From assembly GCA_029856145.1 (NCBI GenBank), contig JAHQWK010000001.1:1-64000 (forward strand): DNA of 64,000 nt, read 5' to 3'. Under the pieces are notes generated by a model. That model was not told the DNA's origin. It saw only the letters and a list, made by a program, of their open reading frames with translations, and did not search any database. This DNA is from Promethearchaeia archaeon (GTDB taxonomy: Archaea > Asgardarchaeota > Lokiarchaeia > Sigyniarchaeales > SOKP01). Shown here one piece after another: positions 1-10,166 of this stretch; position 1 is the first letter of the stretch, and each line of letters begins with the position of its first letter. Position numbers and translations under genes: made by a program.

Positions 1-161
1 GGTTTTTTTGTAAGCATTGAAGAAATTTCTTCAGTTAATTCATCTTCCTCTAATTTAAGTTCTTCGCAAATTTCATCTAAAAGTTCTTGTTTTATTTTTT
101 CTTTTATTTTCCTCTTAATTACATCTTTGATTGATTTATTCGCTAGATCATTATTTTCCAT
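1..161 (-). CDS. 5' part of a gene running off the window; next gene of the Ubl-E1-E2 operon (MENNDLANKSIKDVIKRKIKEKIKQELLDEICEELKLEEDEL...)
   Basis: ATG at 161 lies 7 nt after the E2 stop; open to the window edge; charged helical sequence. Confidence 0.7.
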   Translation of the reverse strand, partial: MENNDLANKSIKDVIKRKIKEKIKQELLDEICEELKLEEDELTEEISSMLTKK

Positions 162-168
162 GTAAAAA

Positions 169-696
169 TCACCATTTTTTATTTGCATACTTCTTAACAA
201 GGTTCTTTACTTTTTTCTCAAAAAACTTTTGATTTTTCATCATTTCTATCGCGGCTTTTTTGTTAAAAACATCTGTTGGATTTACATATTTACCACGTGT
301 ATTTAACATAGCAATTATTGCTTGAACGACAGTCACTGCTGTTTTTGAAGGACTCCATCCACCTTTTTTACCAACTAATGAGGGATCTACTAAAGCAAGA
401 CAAATATTTCTCTGTCCTTTATATTCTGATGGTTTTGGCCAGAAATTTGGATGCCAAATAGGAGTATGAAATCTTACAAAAGGAGGTTTTTTAGGGTATT
501 GACCAGGGAATTTCATTTCTAATCTAAAAAGACCACCTGCATAAACAGTACCTTTAGGACCTTTAAATGAGATTGCTAGATGATCAATACTTTTCCTTTT
601 TGGATTAAATGGTTTTAATTGAACAATACTACCTTCTGTAAGCATTTTTTTTAATCCTGCAAAATCTCGGGAAATACGACTACTTCTTATACTCAT
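169..696 (-). CDS. E2 ubiquitin-conjugating (UBC) enzyme
   Basis: GPKGTVYAGGLF, FPxxYPxxPP, WHPN motif, catalytic NICL, WSPS motif. Confidence 0.95.
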   Translation of the reverse strand: MSIRSSRISRDFAGLKKMLTEGSIVQLKPFNPKRKSIDHLAISFKGPKGTVYAGGLFRLEMKFPGQYPKKPPFVRFHTPIWHPNFWPKPSEYKGQRNICLALVDPSLVGKKGGWSPSKTAVTVVQAIIAMLNTRGKYVNPTDVFNKKAAIEMMKNQKFFEKKVKNLVKKYANKKW

Positions 697-792: not shown

Positions 793-2028
793 TTATTTTA
801 ATTTTAAGGTTACAAAAATTTCACCATCTTTAAACCCCGCCGCTGTCATAAGTTCGTAATTTCTTAATCCATTTTCAATTGGATTCTTTTCTAATTCAAC
901 TATCTTAACATCATTAAAATCCAGTAAAGTTAAAATTGGCTCAGAATCTGGATCTAGTTTAAATCCATTTTTCGTTAATATTTTAATTATGTTTAGACAA
1001 GGTGATTGGGCTCTCAATTTTATTGATACTCGGCGAACTTTTTTACTACATTGAGAACAATCTGGGTTTCTTGGTTTTTCGATATGATAGAATCTCATTG
1101 TAATTGCATTATAGATCACATAATTTCTTATAGGCTCACCTAATCCTTTATGACCTTTTCTCCAATGAAGTATTTTAATTGTTTCATGTGACTGTAAAGC
1201 TGAAATAACAGCATTTATAGTTATAATGCCAGGATCATGCCTATCAATAATTTTTACAATATCATCCTCAGTATATTCAGGCAAGAAATCATGTGTATTT
1301 ACTAGCTCATTTGTAACCTTTTGAATGAATTTAATATCATTTATGTCTTTTGGATTCGGATCACGATCAAACTTTTCTTTAAATGCCATATCTCCTTTAA
1401 AAACGCAATGAATCCTTTTTCGGGGCACTCCAACTACCGTACAGGCTGCCATCTCATCACTCTCACCTACTGGTAATGGATTACATTCATAACAAGCGTT
1501 TTTGTAAGGAAATATTGTATAAACATGGCCATGATAACCGGAAACTCCACCATCTACTAATGGTTTTTTAAATCTTATACATTGTGCATTTAAATTTAGA
1601 CGAGCATTCATCGAATCAAGTCCTCCAACAACAACATCAGCAGCTTGATATAATACAGGATTCAATCGCTCTAAAGAGGTATGATATCCCTTAACTATAA
1701 TATTGGGATTAATTTCTTTGAGCTTTCTCGCCGCCACAACTGCCTTAGGTTCTCCTATCTTTGCTCCAGTAAAAAGAACTTGACGGTTTAAATTAGAATG
1801 TTCAATAATATCTAAATCAATAAGATCTAAATGACCAACACCTAACATGGCAAAATTTTTAGCAATTTCACAACCTAAACCTCCAACACCAACTATCAAC
1901 ACCCTTGAGGCCTTTACTAATTTCTGAGACCAACCTTCCAAACGAAATTGGCGGTCATACAAGCCTCTCTCTTCCGCTGATAATTCTTTTGCAAAAAAAT
2001 CTGAATCCTTATCCAATATTATCACCAT
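793..2028 (-). CDS. E1 ubiquitin-like activating enzyme (eukaryote-type, Uba2/Uba3-like with catalytic Cys)
   Basis: YDRQ, GVGGLGCE, DLDIIEHSNLNRQ, CYEC and CSQC Zn ligands, ACTVVGVPRKRIHC catalytic motif, C-terminal extension. Confidence 0.95.
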   Translation of the reverse strand: MVIILDKDSDFFAKELSAEERGLYDRQFRLEGWSQKLVKASRVLIVGVGGLGCEIAKNFAMLGVGHLDLIDLDIIEHSNLNRQVLFTGAKIGEPKAVVAARKLKEINPNIIVKGYHTSLERLNPVLYQAADVVVGGLDSMNARLNLNAQCIRFKKPLVDGGVSGYHGHVYTIFPYKNACYECNPLPVGESDEMAACTVVGVPRKRIHCVFKGDMAFKEKFDRDPNPKDINDIKFIQKVTNELVNTHDFLPEYTEDDIVKIIDRHDPGIITINAVISALQSHETIKILHWRKGHKGLGEPIRNYVIYNAITMRFYHIEKPRNPDCSQCSKKVRRVSIKLRAQSPCLNIIKILTKNGFKLDPDSEPILTLLDFNDVKIVELEKNPIENGLRNYELMTAAGFKDGEIFVTLKLK

Positions 2029-2107: not shown

Positions 2108-2440
2108 CTACCCAGCTGTACTAGCTGGGATTAAAAGAATATCATCGCCATCATTTACATCATAGTCTCTTAAATTGCTATTTTCATCCATTGTAACTCC
2201 ACCTGAAGATAAATGAAAATCATTGGGATCCAAACCATACAAGTTACCTAAGGTTTGTTTAATATCACTTACTTGATTGCTGTCATTTACAGTTAATTTT
2301 TCTTTCTTTTCCCCAGGTCCAATAGTTGACATGAAATATAAAGTCAATTTCTTTCCTCCAGCAGGAGTTTTACCAGCAGGAGTTTTAGATTTTACTGGTT
2401 CTTCTCCTCCTAAATCCTCATCAAATTCATCAAAACTCAT
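2108..2440 (-). CDS. Ubiquitin-like modifier 1 with acidic N-terminal tail, ends ...LLIPASTAG
   Basis: Beta-grasp pattern (VSDIKQTL, LRDYDVNDGDDILLI), terminal Gly, directly upstream of E1 and E2. Confidence 0.9.
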   Translation of the reverse strand: MSFDEFDEDLGGEEPVKSKTPAGKTPAGGKKLTLYFMSTIGPGEKKEKLTVNDSNQVSDIKQTLGNLYGLDPNDFHLSSGGVTMDENSNLRDYDVNDGDDILLIPASTAG

Positions 2441-2707
2441 TCACATCACTTCCAATTTTTTTTTATTTTACAATCTGTAATTTTGTTATACTTAATAAAA
2501 TGGCATTAAAAAATTATTATAAAACCCTTTGGAATGATTTTGAAGTTTTTTCAGTTATAATCAAAACCAACAGTAAGAAAATTAGGATCCTCAAGAAATT
2601 ATATTATATATTGTATGAATGCCTATCAATATATATAAGACATAATATATTGGTTTAGAGAGAATACGTAATTATAAAAACAAAAAATTTCAACCCAATT
2701 TAAATAT

Positions 2708-3385
2708 ATGCTCATGAGTTCTCTGGATAAAGCGGAATCTATTGTTCTTGAATTAGTAGAAGAGTATTTGACGAAAAAAACCTTCTTCTCAATTAGAGAA
2801 ATTACATCATATATAAGTAATAGGGTGAGATACAATCCTAATATAAATGAGAATAGAATAGAGTTAATCTTAAAGGAATTAATTAAAAGAAGAATTATTA
2901 TTCCAGGAACTCGATTAATGAAAAATAATATTGTTGAACATCCAAAAAGAAATGAAATTTTTAATTATATTAAAAAGAATCCCTCAAATATTAATGAAAT
3001 AATGAGAGCTCTAAACATTGGTAGTAATCAAGCATTATGGCATTTATCATGTTTAGAAAAATTCAAATTCATTAGATCAAAACAACTCAACAATCATAAA
3101 TTTTTCTTCAAATTTGACTCTAACCCAAAACTTGATCCATTATACTTTTATTTGAAAAAAGAGATCGTTCAAAAAATAATTAATTTTATAAAAAACAAAA
3201 ATAAAGCATTTAAAATTACAGAAATAGCAACTGGTTTAAAAAAAAATCATAGTACTATTAAAAAATATTTAGATATTCTAAATGATCTGGAATTAATAAA
3301 CATTGAAAAAGAAAAAAATAGAAACATATTCAAATTAGATTTCGAGAAATATTCTAAGGCTAGAAAATCAATAGAAGGTGCATGA
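2708..3385 (+). CDS. Multi winged-helix (ArsR/HTH-like) protein, probable transcriptional regulator
   Basis: HPKRNEIFNYIKKNP..INEIMRAL..ALWHLSCLE and KITEIATGLKKNHSTIKKYLDIL wHTH repeats plus an N-terminal wHTH-like segment. Confidence 0.75.
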   Translation: MLMSSLDKAESIVLELVEEYLTKKTFFSIREITSYISNRVRYNPNINENRIELILKELIKRRIIIPGTRLMKNNIVEHPKRNEIFNYIKKNPSNINEIMRALNIGSNQALWHLSCLEKFKFIRSKQLNNHKFFFKFDSNPKLDPLYFYLKKEIVQKIINFIKNKNKAFKITEIATGLKKNHSTIKKYLDILNDLELINIEKEKNRNIFKLDFEKYSKARKSIEGA

Positions 3386-3470
3386 AATTGAAAACTCCAA
3401 TTTTATTCCAATCCCATTTAAATTTTAGATTATATATTTTAAATTCAGAAAATAATCTAATCAAAAAATC

Positions 3471-4265
3471 ATGAAAAAGAATTATAGAATTTTAATTGTT
3501 ATTGCTCTTTACACTGTTTGTATATTGTTCTATGTATTTTTTTTCCTATTTCGTATACAAAATACTCCCTTCTTTCTTTTTCTAACTATTGGTAGTGTTG
3601 CAGTATTATCAACTAGTACCATTTATACAGTTATACAGTCTAAAAGCAGTCAAGATAAGAGGTTAAAAGAAAAAAAATCTTTTGCAAAACCAAAGTCAAT
3701 TCAAACGGAAACTATCGATATGATTGAAGATTATATTGATGCAATGCCTTCAATAGAAGAATATATTGAATCAGATGAGTCATATAAGGATATGCCTATA
3801 ATTGATAAATACATTTTTTCAATCTTTAGTAAAGACGAATTAGATAAAATAGACCTTTTAGAGTTACCGAAAATGGATAAGATTTTATTCATCCGAGAAA
3901 TGCTATATTACGATCCAAATGAGAGAAAGGCGTTAATCGAAAATATGCTGAAAAACAAGGATAAAACTGATGGAGAAATAATTTATACACCACCTATGAA
4001 TCCCATTGAAATGGAAGACCAGATCCGTGTTTATGTAAGATCATTACTTGAGCCTGGTGAGAAAACGAAAATAATTATTGTTGATATGACTGATTTCATC
4101 GGGATAACTAAGGATAAAATTGCAGTATTATTTGATTATGATCTAGAAGATTTTCTCATATCTAGCGGAGGGATATTGCTAAAAGAGAACTTACTAATAA
4201 AAGATTATGATATCGATGATGATGATGAAATCGCTCTAATCCCCTCAAGAAAAGAAAAAAATTAA
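3471..4265 (+). CDS. Membrane protein: two N-terminal TM helices, acidic helical linker, C-terminal Ubl domain without terminal Gly
   Basis: Hydrophobic residues 7-55; C-terminal ~80 aa align with both Ubls (PGEK, DFxxSSGG, DYDxxDxDxIxLIP). Confidence 0.85.
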   Translation: MKKNYRILIVIALYTVCILFYVFFFLFRIQNTPFFLFLTIGSVAVLSTSTIYTVIQSKSSQDKRLKEKKSFAKPKSIQTETIDMIEDYIDAMPSIEEYIESDESYKDMPIIDKYIFSIFSKDELDKIDLLELPKMDKILFIREMLYYDPNERKALIENMLKNKDKTDGEIIYTPPMNPIEMEDQIRVYVRSLLEPGEKTKIIIVDMTDFIGITKDKIAVLFDYDLEDFLISSGGILLKENLLIKDYDIDDDDEIALIPSRKEKN

Positions 4266-4282
4266 AAAAAGAACCTAATTTT

Positions 4283-4696
4283 TTAACCAGCTATACTTGC
4301 TGGAATTAAAAGTATGTCATCTCCGTCAGAAACATTATAATAGGTTAATGAGTTAGTTTCATCCATAGTTACACCACCAGATGATAAGTAAAAGTCAGCA
4401 GGATCTAAACCAAATAAATTGGCTATAGTTTCTTTTATATCTCCAACAAGGTTCCCATCATTAATAGTTAATTTTTGTTTTTTCTCACCTGGACCGATAG
4501 TAGACATAAAAAATACCGAAATCTTCTTCCCCCCAGTAACAACCTTTGTAGTAGGAGTTTTAGATTCAACTTCATCCTCAGGAATCTTTGCTAAAGTTTC
4601 TTCTATTCCATCTTCATATTTCTCTTCAAATTCTTCATCTAAATCTTCCAAATCTTCATCAAATTCTTGTTCATTAAACTCATCATCAAAACCCAT
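4283..4696 (-). CDS. Ubiquitin-like modifier 2 with long acidic N-terminal tail, ends ...LLIPASIAG
   Basis: Close paralog of 2108..2440 (FMSTIGPGEKK, LSSGGVTMDE, DGDDILLIPAS). Confidence 0.9.
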   Translation of the reverse strand: MGFDDEFNEQEFDEDLEDLDEEFEEKYEDGIEETLAKIPEDEVESKTPTTKVVTGGKKISVFFMSTIGPGEKKQKLTINDGNLVGDIKETIANLFGLDPADFYLSSGGVTMDETNSLTYYNVSDGDDILLIPASIAG

Positions 4697-4904: not shown

Positions 4905-6062
4905 ATGAATGATAAGCCTATTCCCAAGTATCAAATTCGAGAAAAAACTCCAGATGAAGAACTAGACACAATTCCAGAAAAAAAATTACTGAAAAAAATA
5001 AAAAAAGAAAGAATTAAGTTAGATAAAGAAAAAAGCGAATGGGAAAAAGTTATTAATCAAATTGAGGATTACAAAGAAAATATCGAAGACCTTGAAAAGA
5101 AAAGGAAAGAAAAAGAACTTAAAATTAAATTTCTTCTAGAACAACGAAATAACTTGAAAGAGGAGCTAGAGAGAACGAAAAATCAAATAGAGCAACAAAA
5201 AAATGAATTAGATGCTAAAGAACGGCGATTTAGAGAAAAAATTAAAAGTAAGAATGAAGAATTAAATCAAAAAAATACTGAATTAGAGAGGTTTCAAGAA
5301 AAATTAGATAAATTAAGAGAAGATATTGCTACTCAAAAAAAGAATTTAGATTGGGAAAAAGAAAGAACGGAAAAACGAATAAAGGAAATTAAAACGAAAA
5401 TTCCCGGAATGGAAAGAAGAGAAAATGCCTTAGAAAGAACTATTAATGATTTAGAAAATAATTTAATGGATTTAAGAAATGAAATTAAATATTTAACTAA
5501 AGAAAGGGATAATCTAAATAGGGAAATTAATAACTTAAGGAGAGAGATAACTGACGAAAAAAATCGAATTTCTGATGAAAAACAAAAACTTAAAGAAGAA
5601 AGAGAAAAAACGCGTTATAAAAAGCAAGATTTAGATCTTAGAACTCGTGAACTCGATAAGAAAAGAACAGATCTAAAAAAGTATAGATATAAAGCAGAAA
5701 AGGATGTAAATAATTTAGAAAAAAGAAGACGACAACAAGAAGCGAGATTTAAAGAATTAAAAAGAAAAGTTCCTGCTGCAGAGAAGAAGTTTCACTCCTT
5801 AAATAACAAAATTCCGAATTTAGAGGAAAAATTTAGAAAATTGAATAATGAATATAGACAATTAGAAAAAGAAAAAACAAACTTAGAAAGGGAAAAAAGT
5901 ACTATTAAACGTGAAAGAGAAAAACTAGAAAAGGATAAACAAAGATTTCTAAATGAAAAAAGAGAATTTGAAAGAGAACTAAGAAGGATTAAATCTAAAA
6001 CTCCTTCAATTAAAACAAAGACTCCTTCACATATTAAAACGAAAACTCCCTCAAAATATTAA
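4905..6062 (+). CDS. Long coiled-coil protein with C-terminal KTPS repeats
   Basis: ~330 aa of K/E/R/L heptad-rich sequence; tail IKSKTPSIKTKTPSHIKTKTPSKY. Confidence 0.85.
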   Translation: MNDKPIPKYQIREKTPDEELDTIPEKKLLKKIKKERIKLDKEKSEWEKVINQIEDYKENIEDLEKKRKEKELKIKFLLEQRNNLKEELERTKNQIEQQKNELDAKERRFREKIKSKNEELNQKNTELERFQEKLDKLREDIATQKKNLDWEKERTEKRIKEIKTKIPGMERRENALERTINDLENNLMDLRNEIKYLTKERDNLNREINNLRREITDEKNRISDEKQKLKEEREKTRYKKQDLDLRTRELDKKRTDLKKYRYKAEKDVNNLEKRRRQQEARFKELKRKVPAAEKKFHSLNNKIPNLEEKFRKLNNEYRQLEKEKTNLEREKSTIKREREKLEKDKQRFLNEKREFERELRRIKSKTPSIKTKTPSHIKTKTPSKY

Positions 6063-9014: not shown

Positions 9015-10166
9015 TTGAGTGATGATATTTTTGATTTAGTTGAATTGGCTAAAAAAAGATCCTCAGTAAGAGAAAGGTTTAATGAAATAGCGCAAAATAA
9101 CCAAAATCCTAATTCAAATCCCAGTTGCGATGATGACCAATTTTTAGCAGATCTATTAAAAGTTTTAAAAATTAAAACATTAGTAGTTGGTGTTGGTGGA
9201 GCCGGAAATAATACAGTTTCTCGCTTAGATGATATGGGTATCAATCATGCTGAAACTATAAATATTAATACTGATGCTCATGACCTATATTATTCAAGTT
9301 CAAAACTTAAAATATTAATTGGAAAAGAGCAATGTAATGGACTAGGATCAGGAAACGATCCTAAAATTGGAGCTAAAGCAGCAGAAGAAGATCGCGAAAG
9401 GTTAAATCAAACATTACGTGCAGATATTATTTTTTTAACATGTGGTTTAGGTGGTGGAACAGGTACTGGAGCCGCTCCTGTTATTGCTGAAGAAGCAAAA
9501 AAAAATAATGCTATAGTTGTTACTTTTTGCTCGCTTCCATTTAACTCTGAAGGTAAACAACGATCAGCAAGAGCTCAACTAGGTTTAAAAAACCTTGCTA
9601 AATATTCTGATTTTCTAATTCCAATTCCAAATGATAACTTGTTAGGAATTGTCGGAAAAATCCCTATGATAACAGGGTTTAAAATTATGGATGAAATTTT
9701 AATAAGAAATATAGGGGAAGTTGTGAATTTAATCAATAATTGTGGTTTAGTCAACATTGATTTTGCAGATGTGAAAAAGACCTTGTTGGAAAACCCAAAT
9801 GGAAAATACCCTTCTGGATTAGTGGGAATAGCCGAATGTTTAGGCGAAGAATCAGATTTAATTGAAAAAGCAAAGTTAGCTCTAAATAATCCTCTTTTAA
9901 AGCCAGATCCTAGCCAAGTGAATAGATGTTTGGTATCTGTTACTGGTGATCATACCTTAACATTATCTAAAGTTGATAAAGTTGTATCAACCATATCAAA
10001 TATGATCCCCGAGGAAGCTCAATTAAAATTTGGTGTCCAAAACAAGCCTGATATGGGGTCGAAAATAAAAATAATGGTCTTGGCAAATGGGCCGGTATCA
10101 CCATATGTACGAGCTGCCGTGGATTCAGATATTCATTTCACACCAACAAGTATAGTAGGGTTTTAA
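9015..10166 (+). CDS. ftsZ: Cell division protein FtsZ
   Basis: GVGGAGNN, NTD, GGGTGTG signature, T7 loop GLVNIDFAD. Confidence 0.95.
   Translation: MSDDIFDLVELAKKRSSVRERFNEIAQNNQNPNSNPSCDDDQFLADLLKVLKIKTLVVGVGGAGNNTVSRLDDMGINHAETININTDAHDLYYSSSKLKILIGKEQCNGLGSGNDPKIGAKAAEEDRERLNQTLRADIIFLTCGLGGGTGTGAAPVIAEEAKKNNAIVVTFCSLPFNSEGKQRSARAQLGLKNLAKYSDFLIPIPNDNLLGIVGKIPMITGFKIMDEILIRNIGEVVNLINNCGLVNIDFADVKKTLLENPNGKYPSGLVGIAECLGEESDLIEKAKLALNNPLLKPDPSQVNRCLVSVTGDHTLTLSKVDKVVSTISNMIPEEAQLKFGVQNKPDMGSKIKIMVLANGPVSPYVRAAVDSDIHFTPTSIVGF

Follow-up and report, generated by a model that had tools for sequence, protein, structure and literature searches.

A ubiquitin-like modifier family ending in Ala-Gly in Asgard archaea and its relation to ubiquitin and UFM1

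What kind of modifier is a ubiquitin-like protein (Ubl) that ends in one glycine instead of two? The question is raised by two genes on the reverse strand of the 64,000-nucleotide stretch analysed here (the window, positions 1 to 64,000 of contig JAHQWK010000001.1 from a Promethearchaeia archaeon), which encode UblA (2108..2440, 110 residues) and its paralogue UblB (4283..4696, 137 residues). The initial annotation had proposed that they are a possible intermediate between ubiquitin and UFM1. That proposal is not supported, as ubiquitin matches them best, eukaryotic UFM1 matches poorly and the Asgard counterpart of UFM1 is another family. UblA and UblB are probably Asgard-specific modifiers of the ubiquitin type, used for conjugation to lysine and marked by a single Gly as a specificity tag; in other words, they would belong to a variant of the ubiquitin system, and Asgard archaea would possess at least three parallel tagging systems (Ala-Gly, di-Gly ubiquitin and UFM1-type). 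Gene sequences and structural models give the modifier a predicted ubiquitin-type fold and an invariant Gly. They also place with it, in one conserved operon, a JAMM protease, a RING-like protein of the membrane and a dedicated pair of activating enzyme (E1) and conjugating enzyme (E2), both of which keep their catalytic cysteines.

The Ala-Gly end and its conservation

UblA is recognized by Pfam ubiquitin (2.7e-7) and is the first gene of a Ubl-E1-E2-JAMM run. Its open reading frame (ORF) encodes an acidic, KTP-containing N-terminal extension of about 28 residues, followed by a ubiquitin-type beta-grasp (2111-2356), and closes with LLIPASTAG directly before a TAG stop codon. UblB, likewise an ORF matched by Pfam ubiquitin, is 72% identical to UblA over the core, has a longer acidic extension and closes with LLIPASIAG before a TAA stop codon; roughly 50 of 80 related genome loci have it in the same place. 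Neither protein has a Gly-Gly and neither has a pro-tail.

Ala-Gly is kept in all 120 closest homologues, 113 of which stop there while 7 carry a short extra tail, and in all 132 copies from the 80 loci (113 at the stop codon, 19 with 1-7 further residues). I hereafter call these proteins the Ala-Gly family. A 42-row alignment of the family, with rows cut at Ala-Gly and identities down to 32%, shows no variation at Pro(-6), Ala(-2) or Gly(-1). Sequencing error or chance is ruled out as the cause of the missing Gly, Ala-Gly being conserved with varied codons. The ORFs and the homologues thus agree with the initial annotation that both Ubls end in a single Gly without di-Gly, and the terminal Gly, whose conservation it had named as a check, proves invariant. 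Its statement that no maturation is needed holds for UblA and UblB but not for the whole family, given the 19 tailed copies among 132, and its list of known single-Gly Ubls, UFM1 and ATG8/ATG12, omits bacterial BilA, which ends Val-Ala-Gly (PMC10557695).

One or two KTP motifs are present in the N-terminal tail of each of the 120 close homologues and are possible modification or binding sites. The motifs also repeat at the C-terminus of a neighbouring coiled-coil protein (4905-6062). Family domains occur outside free modifiers as well. Several larger proteins, a HerA/FtsK-type ATPase among them, end in such a domain with Ala-Gly intact (L126:10075-11829, L123:1030-1743, P0127-P0137, P0152, P0157), so placed that whole enzymes might be conjugated; two others (P0121, P0122) contain tandem copies.

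Resemblance to ubiquitin and to UFM1

Pfam assigns ubiquitin to 42 of 42 Ala-Gly family members and Ufm1 to none. In profile alignments with hhalign, for which 15 eukaryotic UFM1 sequences and 44 Asgard di-Gly ubiquitins served as references, the family matches Asgard di-Gly ubiquitin at a probability of 98.0%, eukaryotic ubiquitin at 97.2% and Loki di-Gly ubiquitin at 91%. Eukaryotic UFM1 is matched at 4.9%, against 46.6% for ordinary Asgard di-Gly ubiquitin and 91.9% for Asgard UFM1-like proteins, and the UFM1 hidden Markov model (HMM) gives the Ala-Gly family a median of 0.6 bits. Mean pairwise BLOSUM scores place the family twice as close to ubiquitin (55-59) as to UFM1 (29.8), the latter value being nonetheless the highest to UFM1 of any ubiquitin-type group. 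The AlphaFold model of UblA (predicted local distance difference test, pLDDT, 92) ranks highest with Caldiarchaeum ubiquitin in Foldseek, with ISG15 and ubiquitin in VIA and with ubiquitin clusters in Atlas. UFM1 is absent from the best 60 PDB sequence matches and from the best 50 Foldseek or VIA rows, VIA being uninformative on UFM1 as it returned no UFM1 row for a positive control either. The helix before the last strand has 4 residues in the model, compared with 8 in a UFM1-like control, and the family lacks the one-residue insert that the UFM1 group has in the beta3-beta4 turn. The LRDYDV segment is ubiquitin-like, as had been noted by eye. The best profile matches and the top-ranked structural matches are therefore ubiquitins, and the profiles speak against UFM1 affinity, except for one match, to Heimdall UFM1-like proteins, that stays and is considered below.

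Within the ubiquitins, the Asgard di-Gly proteins (Heimdall/Odin/Hel ESCRT-linked; Lokiarch_37670; PMC9192718) share with the Ala-Gly family an S/T-x-I-G loop and the spacing between last strand and terminal Gly, which is the same in ubiquitin. They are nevertheless a separate family, and the E1 of the Ala-Gly system falls in its own clade. The Loki ubiquitin used in PMC9192718 ends TQAGG and also belongs to a different family.

Pfam Ufm1 yielded no match above cut-off over 400 Asgard genomes, and ten weak matches, several apparently spurious. Since Pfam Ufm1 misses archaeal members, its blank alone proves little, and controls were therefore built. A different Asgard family, ending D-x-L-G, fills Foldseek ranks 1-11 with UFM1, has UFM1 first in Atlas, ranks UFM1 first in PDB by profile and adjoins an E1 whose best match is UBA5. 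Its operons in one Asgard family (f24; L097:87-1791, L098:65-1764, L099:1492-3254, L101:3-1773; related genes in f22, f21, f25, f13, f15, f6) encode a UBA5-like E1, an E2-fold protein nearest an archaeal UFC1 cluster and the modifier ending D-x-L-G. The UFC1-like assignment of this control E2 is weak (template modelling score 0.57 in Atlas), and the protein has no PDB or Pfam match. UFM1-like genes are present in 22 of 400 Asgard genomes. Genomes G014, G031 and G051 carry an Ala-Gly family member, a di-Gly ubiquitin and a UFM1-type modifier together, and the three are therefore paralogous systems. The Asgard UFM1 counterpart is thus the separate D-x-L-G gene family and not that of UblA and UblB.

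It might be argued instead that the Ala-Gly family is itself the Asgard UFM1 orthologue, since PMC12962969 reports Ufm1 homologues in nine Asgard clades, found by structure search, and the Ala-Gly family is widespread. This is highly improbable. The UFM1 profile, the fold and the UBA5-like partner belong to the different, coexisting family, which fits the Asgard homologues as described in that paper. Moreover, Pfam Ufm1 and the eukaryotic and Asgard UFM1 profiles detected nothing convincing in the 97%-complete genome that contains the window.

What, then, does the UFM1-like register amount to? A global profile alignment to the 15 eukaryotic UFM1s reproduces what the initial annotation saw by eye: STIGP, in the beta1-beta2 loop, pairs with TSDP, IP-x4-G pairs with IPRDRVG, and the 82 columns contain a single 1-residue gap, though the alignment scores low (probability 4-5%). 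Eukaryotic UFM1 and its Asgard relatives (UBA5/UFC1 systems; PMC10952357, PMC12962969) do share the single Gly, the Pro six from the end and the loop length with the Ala-Gly family; they differ in having Val or Leu before the Gly, where every Ala-Gly copy has Ala, in a longer second helix, in E1 and E2 and in a weak profile match. Val-Gly is the UFM1 C-terminus described in PMC10952357. The shared features recur elsewhere. STIGP can also be aligned with the S/T-A-I-G-G loop of di-Gly ubiquitin from Asgard archaea. Loki di-Gly ubiquitin has a loop of the same length, with T-G-V-P, and MoaD/SAMP has a long loop too; over the loop region only, ubiquitin scores 10.8 and UFM1 5.2 against the family. 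Pro(-6) is found in 2 of 4 MoaD/SAMP proteins, but of 59 UFM1-like proteins from Asgard archaea just 2 have it. The combination of a single terminal Gly with Pro at -6 is thus present in UblA and UblB, with MoaD/SAMP sharing the Pro and BilA the single Gly. The features cited for UFM1 likeness are not diagnostic. The register would reflect features retained from older beta-grasp proteins, together with an independent loss of the second Gly.

An argument for a closer bond comes from the Heimdall UFM1-like proteins (ending RGVVG; L148-L155, P0273-P0282, P0322), whose placement is based on the tree, a wider profile and a UBA5-like neighbour; their profile alone does not find UFM1 in PDB. A loop motif, Y-F-x-S/T/N-x-I/V-G, is common to them and the Ala-Gly family, and the resemblance covers the N-terminal two thirds. 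It could mean shared ancestry, exchange between paralogues or noise from a low-diversity profile. On the first of these one could suppose that the Ala-Gly family links ubiquitin and UFM1, the latter being derived from, or sister to, single-Gly modifiers with a ubiquitin-type body and canonical E1/E2; the UFM1 lineage would have split inside Asgard, later altered its C-terminal half and switched to UBA5/UFC1, with the Heimdall proteins retaining the shared N-terminal half. The origin of the single-Gly end of UFM1 would then be explained. The near gap-free register, with Pro(-6) and loop length in common, the motif shared with Heimdall proteins in its narrower form Y-F-x-S/N-T-I-G (hhalign 85-91%) and HMM scores of eukaryotic UFM1 (8.3 bits with the Ala-Gly HMM, 3.2 with the di-Gly HMM) all favour this supposition. 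It is nevertheless unlikely, since the loop and Pro(-6) are distributed as described above, the loop region favours ubiquitin, the helix before the last strand is short and no match above 2.7% is obtained with three further UFM1-like subfamilies of Asgard archaea.

Trees built on 80 columns of the modifiers could not place the Ala-Gly family. The clade of eukaryotic and Asgard UFM1-like proteins excludes it with supports of 100/99 and 99/96 (46/96 without the tail columns). Its grouping with UFM1, in a second alignment, drops to 0% of bootstrap trees once the seven tail columns are removed and to 8% once the Heimdall subfamily is left out. Phylogeny, which had been suggested as a check, therefore separates the family from the UFM1 clade but leaves a sister position standing.

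Several results weigh against the assignment of UblA and UblB to a variant ubiquitin system. One tree joins the Ala-Gly family to the UFM1 clade (88/86), and both placements survive approximately unbiased (AU) tests (p 0.41, 0.29, 0.47). The Heimdall UFM1-like profile matches the family at 91% (E 1e-6), against 7.6% for its comparison with di-Gly ubiquitin. By mean pairwise score, eukaryotic UFM1 stands no nearer to the UFM1-like proteins of Asgard archaea (at best 28.2) than to the Ala-Gly family. For the E1 tree, a union of the Ala-Gly E1 with UBA5-like E1s is not rejected (p 0.15), and conjugation to lysine by the Ala-Gly family is argued by analogy.

Enzymes of the operon and a proposed pathway

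The E1 (793..2028, reverse strand; ThiF 1.8e-60) has UBA2 (1.5e-38), UBA3 (1.8e-36) and also UBA1 among its closest PDB sequence matches, and UBA5 only at 5.8e-15. Its catalytic Cys196 is invariant in an alignment of related E1s, and the E1s of Ala-Gly systems form a clade of their own (100/99). The E2 (169..696, reverse strand; UQ_con 1.1e-25) has a canonical UBC fold with an HPN motif at 82-84 and Cys99, and its PDB matches are UBC E2s; a Pfam search of the genome gave no UFC1 match. The canonical-type E1/E2 that had been read from the sequence in place of UBA5/UFC1 is therefore confirmed. The JAMM/Rpn11-like protease (3..161, reverse strand) is cut by the contig end, leaving an N-terminus near-identical to that of a full copy on contig C28 (Pfam JAB 1.2e-17). 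There the JAMM gene is followed by that of a membrane protein whose Cys/His pattern, C4-H-(E)-C2, is RINGv-like and which has no Pfam match.

In a model of the E1 dimer with the Ubl, the tail IPASTAG of UblA (2111..2131, reverse strand), with its invariant Pro, Ala and Gly, sits in the nucleotide pocket of the E1, against its glycine-rich loop and the strand formed by residues 160-168, and the STIGP loop (2315..2329, reverse strand) lies on E1 residues 305-314, touching 166, 305, 307 and 314. The complex scores 0.61, compared with 0.00 for the best control, with contact agreement of at least 78% and partner pLDDT of at least 80; the mark set for this score is reached by 58 of 80 solved pairs and 2 of 110 mismatched pairs. 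The model supports E1 binding alone and may show likeness only, since like complexes are solved.

Gly110 of UblA is the residue predicted to be adenylated. E1 would adenylate it and then form a thioester at Cys196, from which the tag would pass to Cys99 of E2; the membrane RING-like protein would steer the formation of isopeptide bonds with lysines of substrates near the membrane, while JAMM would take the tag off and trim copies made with a tail. An Ala at -2 would do no harm, since the reaction involves just the final Gly. That an Ala-Gly end suffices chemically is seen in bacterial BilA, which a canonical-like E1/E2 joins to lysines through Ala-Gly isopeptides and which a JAMM trims (PMC10557695). 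The Ala may, in addition, insulate the pathway from those of other modifiers, because the Val before Gly in UFM1 reportedly prevents other proteases from cross-recognizing it (PMC10952357). Several insulated modifier pathways would by implication already exist in Asgard cells, as in eukaryotes.

BilABCD shares with the Ala-Gly system the reactive end, a variable short tail removed by JAMM and canonical-like E1 and E2, with the lysine isopeptide demonstrated; it differs in being a bacterial anti-phage system without a RING ligase (E3), and the comparison is with the published description of the Ala-Gly end, not with sequence. The ubiquitin operon of Caldiarchaeum subterraneum (CsUb, E1, E2, small RING, Rpn11; PMC5654768, PMC6043591), the steps of which have been demonstrated (PMC5654768), has the same set of Ubl, canonical E1, UBC E2, JAMM and RING-type protein, and CsUb is the best structural match of UblA. 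CsUb, however, ends in Gly-Gly plus a 9-residue pro-peptide, whereas the Ala-Gly family is mostly born mature. The Ala-Gly system further differs by an acidic extension at the N-terminus, by a membrane-anchored paralogue beside the two free ones and by a RING candidate that is bound to the membrane. With Ala-Gly throughout and no di-Gly, it is therefore a variant of the CsUb-type archaeal system and not a plain member.

Activation might also lead elsewhere than to lysine, to hydroxyls or, as with ATG8, to the head group of a lipid, or the proteins might be sulfur carriers. Single-Gly ends are typical of ATG8, and the operon includes membrane proteins. I consider such outcomes very unlikely: the canonical E2 with HPN, the RING-like E3 candidate and the JAMM isopeptidase suggest lysine conjugation, and the genome's four MoaD/SAMP proteins, which the Ala-Gly family matches at only 24% in hhalign, have their own MoeB. 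ThiS is matched by 4 of 42 family members (best E 0.007). A ThiS/MoaD/SAMP identity, considered as a candidate, was rejected on the low hhalign match and the presence of an E2.

Distribution, neighbouring genes and further modifier sets

The Ala-Gly profile has a match in 192 of the 400 Asgard genomes, though a few of the lowest-scoring ones may reflect the membrane paralogue only, and in 24 of 31 genomes of the family containing Ca. Heimdallarchaeum; two single-contig genomes of the same order gave no match. The order Ubl-E1-E2-JAMM-membrane RING, with the Ubl first, is the usual arrangement and recurs in distant Asgard families. This Loki lineage has several copies, and the operon may also be present in the genome taken for that of cultured Ca. 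Lokiarchaeum ossiferum. In the literature searched I found no paper that describes the family, which is apparently undescribed. Published Asgard ubiquitin biochemistry used di-Gly modifiers, and di-Gly proteomics would miss the Ala-Gly system, which leaves a different remnant. The system is compact and testable, and roughly every second Asgard genome searched carries the family.

In the window, a double winged helix-turn-helix regulator (2708..3385, forward strand; HTH_5 3.9e-9) is divergent from UblA and found in 55 of 80 loci. A conserved non-coding block upstream of UblA (2491..2551, reverse strand), kept in 49 upstream regions, is probably a promoter or operator, judging by this conservation. 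The membrane-anchored paralogue (3471..4265, forward strand; 53 of 80 loci) has a C-terminal domain of the Ala-Gly family that ends IPSRKEKN; without a terminal Gly, it is therefore not conjugatable. The coiled-coil protein with KTP repeats, an ORF on the forward strand (4905..6062), is a neighbour in 49 of 80 loci, distant ones included, and is a possible substrate or adaptor.

A second operon copy lies at a contig end of the same genome (C28:74966-79286; L132:4966-9287). Its DNA is 88% identical, with differences mostly synonymous (31 codons vs 8), and it either arose by duplication or comes from a contaminating strain (genome contamination 5.4%). A solo UblA copy without enzymes (C26:60440-60769; L003) retains the upstream block; solo modifier copies account for about 20 of the 80 loci. 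Besides the Ala-Gly system, the genome contains two further E1-E2 sets and one di-Gly Ubl. One set is a separate JAB-E1-E2 cluster (C32:40262-42542; L134:2263-4542) with a convergent Ubl of divergent sequence, missed by Pfam, that ends VIGG followed by FLKE. The other (C31; L133:2273-5743) comprises an E2 and a 527-residue E1, sister to the Ala-Gly E1 clade (91/92), beside a 2119-residue protein; no modifier gene was found next to it, nor a Lokiarch_37670-type ubiquitin in the assembly. An unrelated, more ubiquitin-like modifier with its own Ubl-E1-E2-JAB operon (L335:3902-6365; L161) ends SIAG plus a tail, an indication that Ala-Gly ends have more than one origin. Lastly, an FtsZ/tubulin-like ORF with a GGGTGTG motif, seen by eye, lies at 9015-10166 of the window.
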